Of a DNA stretch of 4,051 nucleotides, positions 1-4,051 are shown piece after piece (within the stretch, counting starts at the first letter, position 1; every line of letters begins with the position of its first letter). Under the pieces are notes generated by a model. It was not told the origin of the DNA. It made no database searches and saw only the letters and a list, made by a program, of their open reading frames with translations. Source of the stretch: Escherichia coli (lineage in GTDB: Bacteria; Pseudomonadota; Gammaproteobacteria; Enterobacterales; Enterobacteriaceae); assembly GCF_024223415.1 (NCBI RefSeq), contig NZ_CP100507.1; one strand, given 5' to 3'. The translations under genes were made by a program, and so were the position numbers.

Positions 1-887
1 GGGCGTTAAGTGGTCGCGATTATATATCTAATGCCGCTGTTCATACTAGGAAAAGAACAGTTATATGTCTTGATATCACCAATTTTTATCCCAGCATTAG
101 TAAAAAAGATGTTTGTTCTATTTTTAAAAATTTAATGCGTTTTTCTCCTGATGTTTCTTTATGCTTAACGGAACTTGTGACGTTGAATAATAAGGTCCCT
201 CAGGGTGGGTGCTGTTCTAGTTATATTGCAAATCTTTTATTTTTTAATAGTGAGTATAATCTCTATAATAGATTGAAGTCTATGGGGCTTTCATATTCAA
301 GGCTTTTAGATGATATTACTATATCTTCTGATAAGGATCTTTCATCAGAGGAAAAAACAAAAGTAATAAAACTCGTTCACGGAATGGTGAATCAGTACAG
401 ACTTTCAATAAATGAAAGTAAGACAACGATAGAGCACTCAAAAGATTCGTCTTCTAAACTTAGTGTCACTGGGTTGTGGGTAAAGCATGGTGTTCCTAAG
501 TTAACAAAAGAAAATAGACGTTATATCAGGTACTTAGTTTATATATGTAAAAAACAAGGTGCTTATGAACGTCATACGAAAGAGTACCATGATTTATGGA
601 ATAGATGCTCTGGCAAGGTTGCTCAAATGTCGAGGCTTGGGCATGTCCAGGCGGTTGAATTGAGGGCGATTCTTTCTGAGATAATGCCAGTTTATGATGA
701 TTACAAGATATCTAAATTAAAGTTGATGGCTAAGCACTATCTAAATAAGTTTACGCCGCCTTTAACTGATGATCAGATTAGGAAAATAGATAGGATGCTC
801 TATGATTTTGATATAGTAGGGCGGACTAATAAGAATCTTGCAAAACTATATAGACGTAAGCTCGTGGCATTACTTCCAGATAGGTGA
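1..887 (+). CDS. Retron-type reverse transcriptase, 3' part (nt 1-2 complete the codon begun at 4051; 294 further codons; TGA 885-887). Whole gene 3799..4051 + 1..887 = 379 aa
   Basis: Frame 3 is open from nt 3, upstream of the track's first Met at 135. RT motifs occur in the canonical order:
- ISNAAVH (NAxxH, 30-44)
- VICLDITNFYPSI
- VPQGGCCSSYIANLLF (PQG)
- YSRLLDDITIS (catalytic box, LLDD at 303-314)
- LSINESKT
- SVTGLWV (VTG at 465-473)
NAxxH and VTG are signatures I associate specifically with retron RTs. Confidence 0.9.
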   Translation, partial: ALSGRDYISNAAVHTRKRTVICLDITNFYPSISKKDVCSIFKNLMRFSPDVSLCLTELVTLNNKVPQGGCCSSYIANLLFFNSEYNLYNRLKSMGLSYSRLLDDITISSDKDLSSEEKTKVIKLVHGMVNQYRLSINESKTTIEHSKDSSSKLSVTGLWVKHGVPKLTKENRRYIRYLVYICKKQGAYERHTKEYHDLWNRCSGKVAQMSRLGHVQAVELRAILSEIMPVYDDYKISKLKLMAKHYLNKFTPPLTDDQIRKIDRMLYDFDIVGRTNKNLAKLYRRKLVALLPDR

Positions 888-891
888 TTAT

Positions 892-1095
892 ATGGAAAAT
901 GGATTTGTTAATTTTTATGACCATGTTAAAGGGTATGGCTTTATAAGGCGTGAGCGTGGACGTGATGTTTTCTTTCGGTATGATGATTTTTTGTTTTTAG
1001 GGCATGATGTCGATATATGTAAAGGTATTTTAGTTAGGTTTAAATTAGAAAAAACAGATAAAGGGTTTAAAGCTGTAGCGATTCAAAAGGTATAA
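892..1095 (+). CDS. Cold-shock-domain (CspA-like OB-fold) protein, 67 aa, translationally coupled to the RT
   Basis: ATG at 892 lies 4 nt after the RT stop, with AGGTGA (882-887) as a Shine-Dalgarno overlapping that stop. MENGFVNFYDHVKGYGFIRRERGRDVFFRYDDF... aligns by eye to CspA ([28 protein letters not shown]). The RNP1-like KGYGFI (928-945) and RNP2-like VFFRY (967-981) motifs are retained. The track's 838 start is a TTG inside the RT gene, so I prefer 892. Confidence 0.85.
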   Translation: MENGFVNFYDHVKGYGFIRRERGRDVFFRYDDFLFLGHDVDICKGILVRFKLEKTDKGFKAVAIQKV

Positions 1096-1134
1096 CATCG
1101 TGGATGTGTCAGCTTGTTTTTATGATATGAGAAC

Positions 1135-1171: not shown

Positions 1172-1205
1172 GTAAACGAAAAAACCGCCTTGCAGGGCGG
1201 TTTTT
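1172..1205 (-). terminator. RNA I terminator hairpin (also stem-loop I of RNA II on the plus strand)
   Basis: ccgcc(t)-tgca-(g)ggcgg stem at 1185-1200, flanked by an A-run (1179-1184) and a T-run (1201-1205). On the minus strand the hairpin is followed by TTTTTTCGTTT. Confidence 0.75.
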
Positions 1206-1278
1206 CGAAGGTTCTCAGAGCTACCAACTCTTTGAGCCGAGGTAACTGGCTTGGAGGAGCGCAGTCACCAAAACTTGT
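1172..1278 (-). ncRNA. RNA I antisense copy-number regulator (~107 nt)
   Basis: The minus-strand 5' end ACAAGTTTTGGTGACTGC aligns with pMB1 RNA I ACAGTATTTGGTATCTGC. The 3' end is a GC hairpin (1185-1200) followed by a T-run on the minus strand. RNA I is fully complementary to the RNA II 5' end. Confidence 0.85.
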
Positions 1279-2958: not shown

Positions 2959-3225
2959 TTGGTTAAATTACTATTGGTGAGAAATGAATATTTCAATAAA
3001 AACAATGACTTAAAAACCGTTGCTCGGTTTGACGGTAAAACCTTAAGAGATGCCTTTTCGAGAAAAATAGCGACTTTTGATGGCAAGGTTTTAAGGGATG
3101 CCTCTTTAAAAAAAGTAGCAACCTTTGACGGTCAGAATTTAAGAGATGCTAGTTCAAAAATTATCCTGAGTGCCGATGCTGAGGTTGGGATTGTTGTTAT
3201 GGCCTTTGTAGCTGAGTTGATTTGA
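2959..3225 (+). CDS. Hypothetical small protein with three 16-aa tandem repeats and a hydrophobic C-terminal tail (88 codons from TTG 2959; GTG 2977 is an alternative start)
   Basis: Open frame from 2959 to TGA at 3223-3225. The repeats are VARFDGKTLRDAFSRK / IATFDGKVLRDASLKK / VATFDGQNLRDASSKI. The conserved residues use different synonymous codons between copies (gac/gat/gac, ggt/ggc/ggt, aga/agg/aga, gcc/gcc/gct), which argues for selection on the protein. Against: no in-frame ATG before codon 82 and no recognisable Shine-Dalgarno. Confidence 0.55.
   Translation: MVKLLLVRNEYFNKNNDLKTVARFDGKTLRDAFSRKIATFDGKVLRDASLKKVATFDGQNLRDASSKIILSADAEVGIVVMAFVAELI
3019..3162 (+). repeat. 3 x 48-bp diverged tandem repeat (3019-3066, 3067-3114, 3115-3162), in frame with ORF 2959-3225
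   Basis: Hand alignment gives about 31/48 identical nt between copies 1 and 2. The period is a multiple of 3, and much of the variation within the conserved F-D-G-x-x-L-R-D-A core is at third codon positions. Confidence 0.85.
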
Positions 3226-3507
3226 ATCTCATGCTGCATACCTTTTAGCCTATCGCTGGCAGGATAAGGCGCTTTCTTGTTGGTGACAGAAAGATAAAAA
3301 ACTTTATAATAATCAGCGAAGCGGGCGAACCACGCCTGGCTCTCGCTCTTTAACAAATGGTTACGTGTATGTTGCGCAAGGAAACCGATGCCTTGTTTTT
3401 AAGGCGATCTCGCATGAGATCATGACCGGCCTGGCCGCTAATTAATGGTGAGAACGCCCCTGAGCGTGTATCAGCACTAAAAGAATAGCGACGATTGTCT
3501 GGCAATG

Positions 3508-3520
3508 TGAGTTAAAAGTC
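3508..3520 (+). repeat. Inverted repeat arm a1 (candidate)
   Basis: 13/13 complementarity to 3780-3792. Confidence 0.7.
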
Positions 3521-3594
3521 CCAAAGAGCCAATAGAGTTTTTCCTTGCTTTCCTACTGGTCTGGCAAAATTTCATAACCAATAGGAGTTGCATC

Positions 3595-3777
3595 ATGTTT
3601 ATTATCAACATCAACATTAACGTAACCAAGAGCTCTTCATCTTGTTCTGGAGACGGTCAGATGAAGAAAAAAAGAGAGGTTGGCTCTCTGGAGGCACTGA
3701 AAAAAACACAGTTTTTGTTTTCTATGTGCTTGATTATGTTTAAAGTAATAGATTACGTATCGAAACTTTTTAACTAA
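3595..3777 (+). CDS. Hypothetical 60-aa ORF lying entirely inside the candidate retron ncRNA (internal alternative start 3661 gives 38 aa)
   Basis: AGGAG (3583-3587) lies 7 nt before ATG 3595, and GGAGA (3649-3653) lies 7 nt before the in-frame ATG 3661. The product MFIINININVTKSSSSCSGDGQMKKKREVGSLEALKKTQFLFSMCLIMFKVIDYVSKLFN is low-complexity with no motif I recognise. It may be non-coding. Confidence 0.3.
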   Translation: MFIINININVTKSSSSCSGDGQMKKKREVGSLEALKKTQFLFSMCLIMFKVIDYVSKLFN

Positions 3778-3779
3778 TC

Positions 3780-3792
3780 GACTTTTAACTCA
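3780..3792 (+). repeat. Inverted repeat arm a2 (candidate), preceded by a degenerate tandem copy at 3765-3776 (ACTTTTTAACTA vs ACTTTTAACTCA)
   Basis: 13/13 complementarity to 3508-3520. The adjacent near-duplicate offers an alternative pairing register. Confidence 0.7.
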
Positions 3793-3798
3793 AACATC

Positions 3799-4051
3799 AT
3801 GAATAAACCCAGGTTTAATGGAACTCCTGTTGCATCTTTGGATTCTTTATCTGCGATGTTAGGCATAGAAAGAAAAAGATTGGACTGGATAGTCAAGTCT
3901 GTATCGATGTCGTACAAGCAGTTTAAGGTTGAAACAGGGAAGAATAAAAAAGAAAGGCAAATTTTTGAACCCAAGAGATCTTTGAAAGGAATTCAAAAAA
4001 AAATAAATAAAGAGATTTTTGAGAAAATTGATTACCCTCATTATTTGCATG
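3799..4051 (+). CDS. Retron-type reverse transcriptase, 5' part (84 codons + 1 nt; runs off the window end and continues at nt 1)
   Basis: ATG at 3799 with no stop through 4051. An in-frame TAA at 3775-3777 makes 3799 the only available start. The translation MNKPRFNGTPVASLDSLSAMLGIERKRLDWIVKSVSMSYKQFKVETGKNKKERQIFEPKRSLKGIQKKINKEIFEKIDYPHYLH fits the retron RT N-terminal pattern (Y..F.h.K..G..R.I..P...LK.IQ..I...I). It is absent from the supplied ORF track because it is open-ended. No obvious Shine-Dalgarno. Confidence 0.88.
   Translation, partial: MNKPRFNGTPVASLDSLSAMLGIERKRLDWIVKSVSMSYKQFKVETGKNKKERQIFEPKRSLKGIQKKINKEIFEKIDYPHYLH

Follow-up and report, generated by a model that had tools for sequence, protein, structure and literature searches.

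The 4,051-nucleotide stretch of Escherichia coli DNA analysed here (the window; contig NZ_CP100507.1) is a complete circular ColE1-type plasmid that carries Retron-Sen1 (Se72), the founding type V retron, which consists of a non-coding RNA (ncRNA), a reverse transcriptase (RT) and a cold-shock-domain (CSD) protein. The element is identified as a type V retron by plasmids identical to the window, by the product name "retron Se72 family effector" assigned by the Prokaryotic Genome Annotation Pipeline (PGAP), and by its pair of RT and CSD genes, the combination that defines type V (Mestre et al. 2020). The main finding, to which we give a probability of about 0.55, is that a 60-codon open reading frame (ORF) directly upstream of the RT gene represents a true small gene that has been conserved among type V retrons, and that the 285 nucleotides from 3508 to 3792 would both encode a protein and act as a functional RNA. 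The small ORF as such is already known, its product being identical to the UniProt entry Q9L7Z7_SALEN, an "uncharacterized protein". The literature searched treats type V as a "canonical CSD-associated" arrangement of RT, CSD and ncRNA that serves as a comparator or outgroup, with the ORF taken as one of unknown function or as RNA only, and no description of a hybrid RNA (hyRNA) with a small protein was found for type V in the literature searched. The conservation of the ORF across all type V retrons analysed, its sequestered Shine-Dalgarno (SD) sequence, a pair of co-varying repeats, and a second and third long-range helix appear to be undescribed. Work by Rychlik and colleagues from 2001 is said to have shown that three ORFs, including "an ORF of unknown function", are needed for the small DNA of this retron.

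Conservation of the small open reading frame

Type V loci were gathered from plasmids, genomes and metagenomes of Gamma- and Betaproteobacteria, including some metagenome-assembled genomes (MAGs), and 54 were analysed, with RTs 33-100% identical to the Sen1 RT. All 54 loci contain an ATG-initiated ORF of 52-85 amino acids (aa) with an upstream SD sequence, mostly AGGAG or GGAGG, 4-10 nt before the ATG, and the distance from the stop codon to the RT start is 13-74 nt. The SD, the ATG and the 52-85 sense codons are kept though the sequences can no longer be aligned, while the minus strand and the other frames of the region are not kept open. In a strict chance test, the observed ORF length was reached in 0-9 of 500 dinucleotide shuffles per locus. 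A fairer test, counting any ATG-initiated ORF of at least 50 codons in the shuffled interval, gave a mean probability of 0.096 per locus and a product over 34 lineage representatives of about 10^-36.

The 60-aa ORF ending at TAA 3775-3777, together with the AGGAG placed 7 nt before its ATG at 3595, is present as the preliminary description of the window had stated. The same description proposed a second start at ATG 3661, led by GGAGA and opening a 38-aa ORF. The letters are there, with GGAGA at 3649-3653 and the ATG at 3661-3663, 7 nt further on and inside a 9-bp hairpin (3634-3667), but the shorter ORF does not survive comparison: Klebsiella has AAG in place of its ATG, Hafnia and Edwardsiella have no such ATG, and the GGAGA belongs to a conserved CYG-GAGA-CRG tetraloop hairpin instead of serving as an SD. 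Attention had also been drawn to the common frame of the small ORF and the RT. In Sen1 the RT ATG at 3799 is indeed in frame with ATG 3595, 204 nt after it, with 21 nt between the small-ORF stop and the RT ATG, but this has no significance, as the three relative frames are represented by 13, 21 and 20 loci.

At least 1000 contigs have the exact 60-aa Sen1 form; 188 have a 62-aa variant that keeps the frame and is longer by one hexamer (an extra IN), and 32 have a Klebsiella 60-aa form. When frame-breaking indels, proposed earlier as the sign of a pure ncRNA, were looked for across homologues, the frame was intact in 54 of 54 loci. Frameshifted forms are confined to single contigs among near-identical plasmids, compared with more than 1200 contigs with an intact frame, and the frameshifts, as far as the peptide sequences indicate, lie in or near two A7 runs, a pattern typical of homopolymer sequencing error. 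In one type V MAG locus (L032, positions 1257-1500), the small ORF is split by a frameshift near the C-terminus and the RT is also interrupted; this is probably an assembly error or a decaying copy.

Codon-level selection, another check suggested at the outset, was examined in 14 largely independent locus pairs. Differences at codon positions 1, 2 and 3 numbered 177, 133 and 188, respectively (p = 0.006), and the ratio of non-synonymous to synonymous differences (pN/pS) was 0.62 in frame, compared with 0.80 and 1.11 in the other two frames. These values point to a coding signature that is real but weak, and the weakness is explained by the constraint that acts on the same nucleotides as RNA. 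Synonymous divergence (dS) in the small ORF and the RT gene was 0.07 and 2.07, respectively, between two Pseudomonas loci (L005 and L006), 0.29 and 1.12 between Sen1 and Klebsiella, and 0.35 and 1.48 between two Shewanella loci (L013 and L016). By these figures, dS in the ORF is far below that in the RT gene, and the region is strongly constrained as RNA as well.

The small proteins share an architecture: the N-terminus is weakly conserved, the middle is polar or charged, and the C-terminal segment is hydrophobic or amphipathic. In many lineages, hydrophobic residues alternate over a short distance at the N-terminus, as in FIINININV of Sen1. When hydropathy is taken over windows of 15 residues, the peak is C-terminal in 52 of the 54 proteins, and its Kyte-Doolittle value is at least 1.6 in 39 of the 54. 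AlphaFold2, run with three close sequences aligned, predicts one long helix from residue 29 to 59, with a predicted local distance difference test score (pLDDT) of 71-91, and leaves residues 1-26 at low confidence with no reliable N-terminal fold. The small protein has no match in the Pfam, NCBIfam or PADLOC families. The idea that the type V small proteins all form one sequence family was rejected; position and architecture, not sequence, define the family.

Long-range helices, the hidden Shine-Dalgarno sequence and the repeats

The Sen1 region 3495-3800 folds with a z-score of -4.15. In a plain MAFFT alignment of 12 loci the divergent parts are misaligned, so that RNAalifold gave nothing but a spurious pairing between two repeat copies; anchor-based tests of helix arms were used in its place. 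In these tests, windows were anchored independently of complementarity in 40 lineage representatives, and the pairing of two arms from one locus (cognate) was compared with that of arms from different lineages (non-cognate). Three long-range helices, P1 (also helix B, with arms a1 and a2), P2 and helix A, were tested in this way (Table 1). Cognate and non-cognate arms formed 10.05 and 6.70 bp for P1 (p = 1.6e-12), 9.47 and 7.55 bp for P2 (p = 1.5e-8), and 9.72 and 7.75 bp for helix A (p = 3.7e-11), whereas two mismatched-window controls gave 8.40 and 8.32 bp (p = 0.22) and 5.75 and 5.99 bp (p = 0.95). The terminal inverted repeats beside the RT comprise two conserved pairs with lineage-specific complementarity.

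The arm sequences of P1 are wholly different between lineages and still complementary. In 45 of the 54 loci, the best 3′ arm starts between -1 and +8 nt, counted from the first stop-codon base, and most commonly at +5, which is 2 nt past the stop. The P2 arrangement occurs with different sequences in at least 15 lineages, and the arms of helix A lie at equivalent positions, again with different sequences, in many lineages. The earlier statement that the ORF lies wholly between a1 and a2 is correct for the 3508/3780 pair and incorrect for the pair used in the published Sen1 annotation (3358-3374/3612-3628), whose 3′ arm lies inside the ORF. This arm coincides with part of a run of AAC-N3 hexamers (aacatc/aacatt/aacgta, 3607-3624), which had been noted as encoding NININ and which is present, the translation continuing to NININV. 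The run was rejected as a separate feature, since the same nucleotides form the 3′ arm of helix A and encode the alternating N-terminal segment of the protein. Between plasmids, the hexamer run (3604-3624) varies by units of six, which keeps the frame and also lengthens arm 2 of helix A; one complete E. coli plasmid matches the locus with 6 extra bases.

Two hairpins lie within the ORF. The stem of the first (3634-3667) differs between lineages, and the same apical CYG-GAGA-CRG recurs in 7 of 8 divergent loci folded. The second, P3, shows compensating changes, AAAACA/TGTTTT in Sen1 being replaced by AACCCC/GGGGTT in Klebsiella. The preliminary description had left two readings, a dual coding and templating RNA, or an "ORF" that is really ncRNA and whose disruption acts through the RNA. 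The open frame in 54 of 54 loci, the kept pairing and the low dS favour a coding and structured RNA; templating by this segment is the part of the first reading that is not upheld, the template more likely being upstream of 3508. What stands of the second is that base pairing takes up most of the ORF, and loss of peptide and damage to the RNA are therefore confounded in the old knock-outs; a purely non-coding RNA does not agree with a frame kept at every locus.

The SD of the small ORF is predicted to be buried in a hairpin, with a pairing probability of 0.95 in Sen1. Across the 54 loci the mean predicted SD pairing is 0.85, compared with 0.65 when the upstream sequence is shuffled (Wilcoxon p = 1e-8), and it exceeds the control in 48 of the 54. 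The partner in nearly every lineage is a pyrimidine-rich anti-SD strand, which in most loci precedes the ATG by 41-80 nt, and the stem is extended by complementary bases that are specific to the lineage.

The upper part of this hairpin contains one copy of a direct repeat, the other copy of which lies at the 3′ base of a long hairpin upstream of a1. Copy 1 is found 0-7 nt before a1 in nearly all loci, and copy 2 within the SD hairpin, 33-69 nt before the ATG. The repeat is 7-10 nt long and differs by lineage (GTCTGGCAA, GTCAGGAGT, GTCAAGCTT, TGTTGAACG, GATGAGCA, TGTTGAGC and GTTGAGCGAA), and both copies change jointly, with cognate and non-cognate scores of 7.95 and 6.31 (p = 5e-14). A third copy inside the ORF was rejected as inconsistent across lineages. 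A type VI locus from Alteromonas (L080, positions 1190-1240) contains GATTGTCTTAGGCAATC, which resembles the type V repeat context CGATTGTCTGGCAATG and hints at a homologous ncRNA repeat element in types V and VI.

Table 1. Features of Retron-Sen1 and its plasmid, in window coordinates; MFE, minimum-free-energy prediction.
Feature	Position	Strand	Remarks
Promoter-like site GTGACA-16 nt-TATAAT	3283-3310	+	11/12 consensus matches; candidate promoter of the retron transcript by consensus only
Helix A, 5′ arm (a1 of published Sen1 annotation)	3358-3374	+	pairs with 3612-3628; 17 nt, 88% complementary
msr-like module	3390-3430	+	hairpins 3390-3405 and 3406-3421 (GATCTC/GAGATC), then box ATGACCGGC 3422-3430; MFE helices
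Long irregular msd-like hairpin	3429-3503	+	MFE; lineage-variable sequence; candidate template of the 72-nt DNA
Direct repeat copy 1, GTCTGGCAA	3497-3505	+	2 nt before a1, 3′ base of msd-like hairpin
P1 (helix B), 5′ arm (a1)	3508-3520	+	pairs with 3780-3792; perfect 13-bp inverted repeat
P2, 5′ arm	3521-3533	+	directly after a1; pairs with 3679-3691; MFE fold
SD-sequestering hairpin	3551-3586	+	anti-SD UCCUA 3551-3555 pairs with UAGGA 3582-3586; MFE fold
Direct repeat copy 2, GTCTGGCAA	3559-3567	+	upper part of SD hairpin
SD sequence AGGAG	3583-3587	+	7 nt before ATG 3595-3597
Small ORF	3595-3777	+	60 aa plus TAA (3775-3777); protein MFIINININVTKSSSSCSGDGQMKKKREVGSLEALKKTQFLFSMCLIMFKVIDYVSKLFN; SD-led, conserved type V small protein
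Helix A, 3′ arm	3612-3628	+	overlaps ORF codons 6-12 and AAC-N3 hexamer run
ORF-internal hairpin	3634-3667	+	9-bp stem 3634-3642/3659-3667; CUG-GAGA-CGG cap, GNRA-type tetraloop
P2, 3′ arm	3679-3691	+	mid-ORF, encodes VGSLE
ORF-internal hairpin P3	3692-3731	+	kept in Sen1, Klebsiella, Hafnia and Edwardsiella (enterobacterial plasmids)
P1, 3′ arm (a2)	3780-3792	+	starts 2 nt after small-ORF stop codon
Retron RT gene	3799-4051 joined to 1-887	+	379 aa, across the window ends; no SD before ATG
CSD protein gene	893-1096	+	67 aa plus stop; Pfam CSD E = 4e-8, above cut-off; PGAP "retron Se72 family effector protein"
RNAI	1176-1276	-	Rfam, 94.6 bits

Template, priming and comparison with type VI retrons

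Upstream of the ORF, the same order of elements was found in the 18 lineages folded: arm 1 of helix A, a conserved (A/G)GGAAAYCGA motif, two small hairpins, the box ATGACCGGC, and the long hairpin, which carries repeat copy 1 at its 3′ base. The two small hairpins and the box recur in divergent loci, and all 18 divergent loci folded have a long hairpin at the equivalent position. From 5′ to 3′, the order in every type V retron analysed is msr-like hairpins, then the long msd-like hairpin, repeat copy 1, a1, SD hairpin with copy 2, ATG, ORF of 52-85 codons, stop, a2, RT and CSD. The published Sen1 ncRNA of the census of Khan et al. corresponds to window positions 3358-3628, with arms 3358-3374/3612-3628, and, as it ends at 3628, it takes in only the smaller part of the ORF and has neither a2 nor the 3′ arm of P2. 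Of the two donor sites that this census chose for Sen1, one ("bacterial donor location 83;129") maps inside the long hairpin. For the type V retron of Haliea, the census draws an ncRNA whose arms enclose the ORF, and no reverse-transcribed DNA (RT-DNA) was seen by polyacrylamide gel electrophoresis (PAGE) with a construct lacking the CSD gene; minimal type V constructs may be incomplete.

A small DNA of 72 nt has been reported for Se72 and is detectable at rest according to the literature. The span from the base of the long hairpin to a1 (approximately 3436-3507) is also 72 nt. The long hairpin upstream of 3508 is more likely the reverse-transcribed template, judging by this length and by the fold, and the ORF-bearing RNA the primer or regulatory part. 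In a rival placement, the DNA would start at 3611, beside arm 2 of helix A, and run antisense to the ORF start and the SD. Se72 has no apparent priming or branching G and no 2′-5′ link, and its ORF with the associated repeats has been considered a possible msr (review by Simon et al. 2019); "self-priming" of Se72 is the claim in the title of Pilousova & Rychlik 2011. The outer end of the a1/a2 helix abuts the msd-like hairpin, so an RNA 3′ end at a2 would form a primer-template junction. Such a junction would fit both the published self-priming and the review statements on the msr, the missing G and the missing 2′-5′ link. In many loci, the stretch after a2 (3778-3798 in Sen1) is pyrimidine- or U-rich, and a2 with the U-run could mark the 3′ end of the RNA.

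The RTs of type V belong to RT clade 3 and are a sister lineage of those of type VI, for which a related arrangement has been described. In Retron-Vpa2, a type VI retron, a hyRNA combines the msr-msd with the coding sequence of a small toxic protein; its 3′ end pairs back through a1/a2-like repeats, the ribosome-binding site (RBS), as well as the start codon, is buried in stem-loops, 7-nt direct repeats lie in the msd and in the RBS "riboregulator", and translation of the toxin needs the reverse-transcribed DNA (Shipman laboratory, October 2025; bioRxiv 10.1101/2025.10.22.683967). Retron-Sen3, also of type VI, has a small protein (SP) that is the toxin, a helix-turn-helix (HTH) antitoxin and RecBCD surveillance, and employs post-translational control instead (bioRxiv 10.64898/2026.04.27.721009). 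Type V shares with type VI a small coding sequence in an extended structured retron RNA closed by a1/a2-like repeats (3508-3520/3780-3792), an RBS predicted to lie in a stem-loop, and a link to RecBCD and lambda Red/Gam. A short pair of direct repeats (copy 1 at the 3′ base of the putative msd hairpin and copy 2 in the RBS hairpin) and a predicted hydrophobic C-terminal helix in the small protein may be further points in common. Retron-Sen1 defends against lambda, and Gam or loss of RecB are its triggers in the literature.

There are differences as well. Type VI loci fetched for comparison contain an HTH gene, whereas type V has only 13-74 nt between the small ORF and the RT, with no HTH gene there, and has a CSD gene after the RT instead. 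With ~285 nt between the arms, compared with ~470 nt, the type V RNA is the more compact of the two, and its coding region itself carries P2, arm 2 of helix A and two conserved hairpins. Unlike the DNA of Vpa2, that of Sen1 is detectable at rest. In a separate observation, three metagenomic loci (L068 at 358-603, L071 at 880-1128 and L072 at 175-423), whose RTs are 31-35% identical to the Sen1 RT, have a small ORF of 81-82 aa that is immediately followed, without an intervening HTH gene, by a shorter RT of 270-298 aa, and may represent a type VI-like variant without the antitoxin.

Compared to canonical msr-msd ncRNAs such as Ec86, Sen1 has the same terminal inverted repeats and the same succession of short conserved hairpins and a long variable one directly upstream of the RT. 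However, the RNA between its terminal repeats is not non-coding, as it holds the conserved SD-led ORF at all loci; it has two interleaved terminal helices, not one; and the published a2 lies ~105 nt from its long hairpin. The mRNAs of hok/sok-type systems (type I toxin-antitoxin) offer another comparison: they encode a small hydrophobic toxin, are kept inert by 5′-3′ fold-back and a sequestered SD, and are activated by remodelling or processing of the RNA. There is no sequence relation to Sen1, in which the RNA that acts as the lock belongs to a reverse-transcriptase system and activation would presumably come from the DNA or a phage trigger; no antisense RNA gene came to light there, although no search aimed at one was made.

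Under the main reading, the small ORF would be translationally silent at rest, with its SD paired, codons 6-12 held in helix A, and the coding region closed by a1/a2 and P2. Phage Gam, by inhibiting RecBCD, would cause the reverse-transcribed DNA to accumulate or change. The 5′ end of this DNA, as the complement of repeat copy 1, could pair with copy 2 and open the SD hairpin, whereupon translation would follow. The small protein would be the counterpart of the type VI SP, and the CSD protein, which binds single-stranded nucleic acid, would then act as a regulator or partner rather than, or besides, as a toxin. A further-reaching reading, which we regard as rather unlikely, makes type V a hyRNA system like type VI, in which the small protein is the true toxic effector, the CSD protein a regulator or antitoxin, and the ORF-bearing RNA a primer that self-primes from a2.

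Weighing of the readings and the plasmid setting

Several points weigh against a small gene conserved in type V and against its proposed role. The type V small proteins have a mean column identity of 18% and no invariant column, and a profile hidden Markov model built from the enterobacterial ones reaches only those of Pseudomonas. The in-frame pN/pS lies only mildly under the out-of-frame values, and the conserved VGSLE and SGDG residues may be a reflection of RNA helices and the tetraloop. We infer both the translation and the toxicity of the small protein from sequence, and the position of the msd likewise, the census having used two different donor sites and had no sequence of the Sen1 RT-DNA. 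Since helix A crosses both P1 and P2, the three conserved long-range helices cannot all nest, which implies a pseudoknot or alternative folds with a conformational switch, as far as predicted pairing goes. With regard to type VI, a comparison by hhalign of 43 type V with 9 type VI small proteins gave a probability of 0.2% and no detectable homology, type V loci contain no HTH gene, and it is the CSD protein that is named as the effector in the published view. Phage resistance is, moreover, reported to have been independent of DNA synthesis in the 2001 work of Rychlik and colleagues.

An alternative that we regard as unlikely is that the ORF acts as a leader: the passage of ribosomes would be the function and the peptide irrelevant, a ribosome at the stop codon melting P2 and a1/a2 and in this way controlling RT translation or the priming helix. 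The RT start, 13-74 nt after the small-ORF stop, is without an SD-like sequence in 52 of the 54 loci, and for its translation the RT may rely on the small ORF or use a non-SD mechanism. The stop codon adjoins a2 in 45 of 54 loci, and the peptide is poorly conserved, with a pN/pS of only 0.62. However, a pure leader has no need of the length of 52-85 aa and of the C-terminal hydrophobic helix that is kept in 52 of 54 proteins, and the frame relation to the RT is random. Silencing by the SD hairpin would also silence a coupled RT, yet the RT is needed for the DNA that is present at rest.

The small protein could also be a non-toxic structural or catalytic aid to DNA synthesis, for instance an RT-RNA cofactor, with CSD as the effector, but we consider this distinctly improbable. 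The literature does assign the effector role to the CSD protein, and the retron of Haliea, the only type V retron tested in the census, gave no RT-DNA by PAGE, though from a construct without the CSD gene. The old knock-outs, which might be read in favour of such an aid, cannot split the peptide from an RNA in which the ORF overlaps P2, helix A, two hairpins and a2; an aid that is constantly needed is not expected behind a conserved SD-sequestering hairpin; and the small protein at the same position in the sister type VI retrons is a toxin. That the frame, the ATG and the SD-like purine run are all by-products of RNA constraint, with no peptide made, is highly improbable: the RNA constraint is very strong, with dS far below that of the RT and helices and hairpins that keep their pairing across the ORF, PGAP leaves the ORF uncalled in nearly all records and a few frameshifted variants exist, but RNA structure needs no open frame, and the ATG, SD and 52-85 codons kept at all 54 loci in this one frame and strand, the codon-position bias, and the restriction of frameshifts to single contigs near the two A7 runs, compared with more than 1200 intact ones, speak against such a reading.

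The RT of Sen1 has a precomputed Pfam RVT_1 assignment and is 99% identical to a cluster annotated as a retron-type RT, and labels reading "Retron Se72 reverse transcriptase" occur among the RT homologues in the match list. Lists of ORFs made from the linear window miss the full 379-aa RT and show a false 250-aa ORF at 135-887. Its catalytic motif is RLLDD (YSRLLDD, window 544-561) and not the usual retron YADD, and Y183, R185, L186, L187, D188 and D189 are invariant in an alignment of 22 type V RTs. A CSD gene lies directly downstream of every complete RT in the type V set.

E. coli, Shigella and Salmonella have plasmids that are 100% identical to the window over the region 3300-4051, and the length of some of these plasmids is exactly 4,051 bp; the locus is present in 27 of 5,426 complete E. 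coli genomes, plasmid-borne in 26 of those 27. Records identical to the window have an annotated Rop gene and a small MobA gene. An Rfam scan found no retron RNA family on the region, and its only match was the ColE1 RNAI elsewhere on the plasmid. Just upstream of the promoter-like site of the retron, an 88-aa ORF (2959-3225, plus strand; hypothetical protein WP_224471576.1) contains three tandem repeats of ~15 aa, A(T/R)FDG(K/Q)xLRDA, with a weak, sub-threshold match to Pfam Bflower_2.

Retron-Sen1 is a classic retron that has appeared odd for 25 years, in view of its "ORF of unknown function", the lack of a branching G and its unusual DNA product. Should the small ORF prove to be a conserved gene under a translational lock, the question of which protein is the effector in type V retrons would have to be tested again, and the published minimal constructs would omit essential parts. 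The logic of a toxin inside a retron RNA would then reach a second retron type, one whose small protein is unrelated, and this would point to either convergent or very old use of the design.

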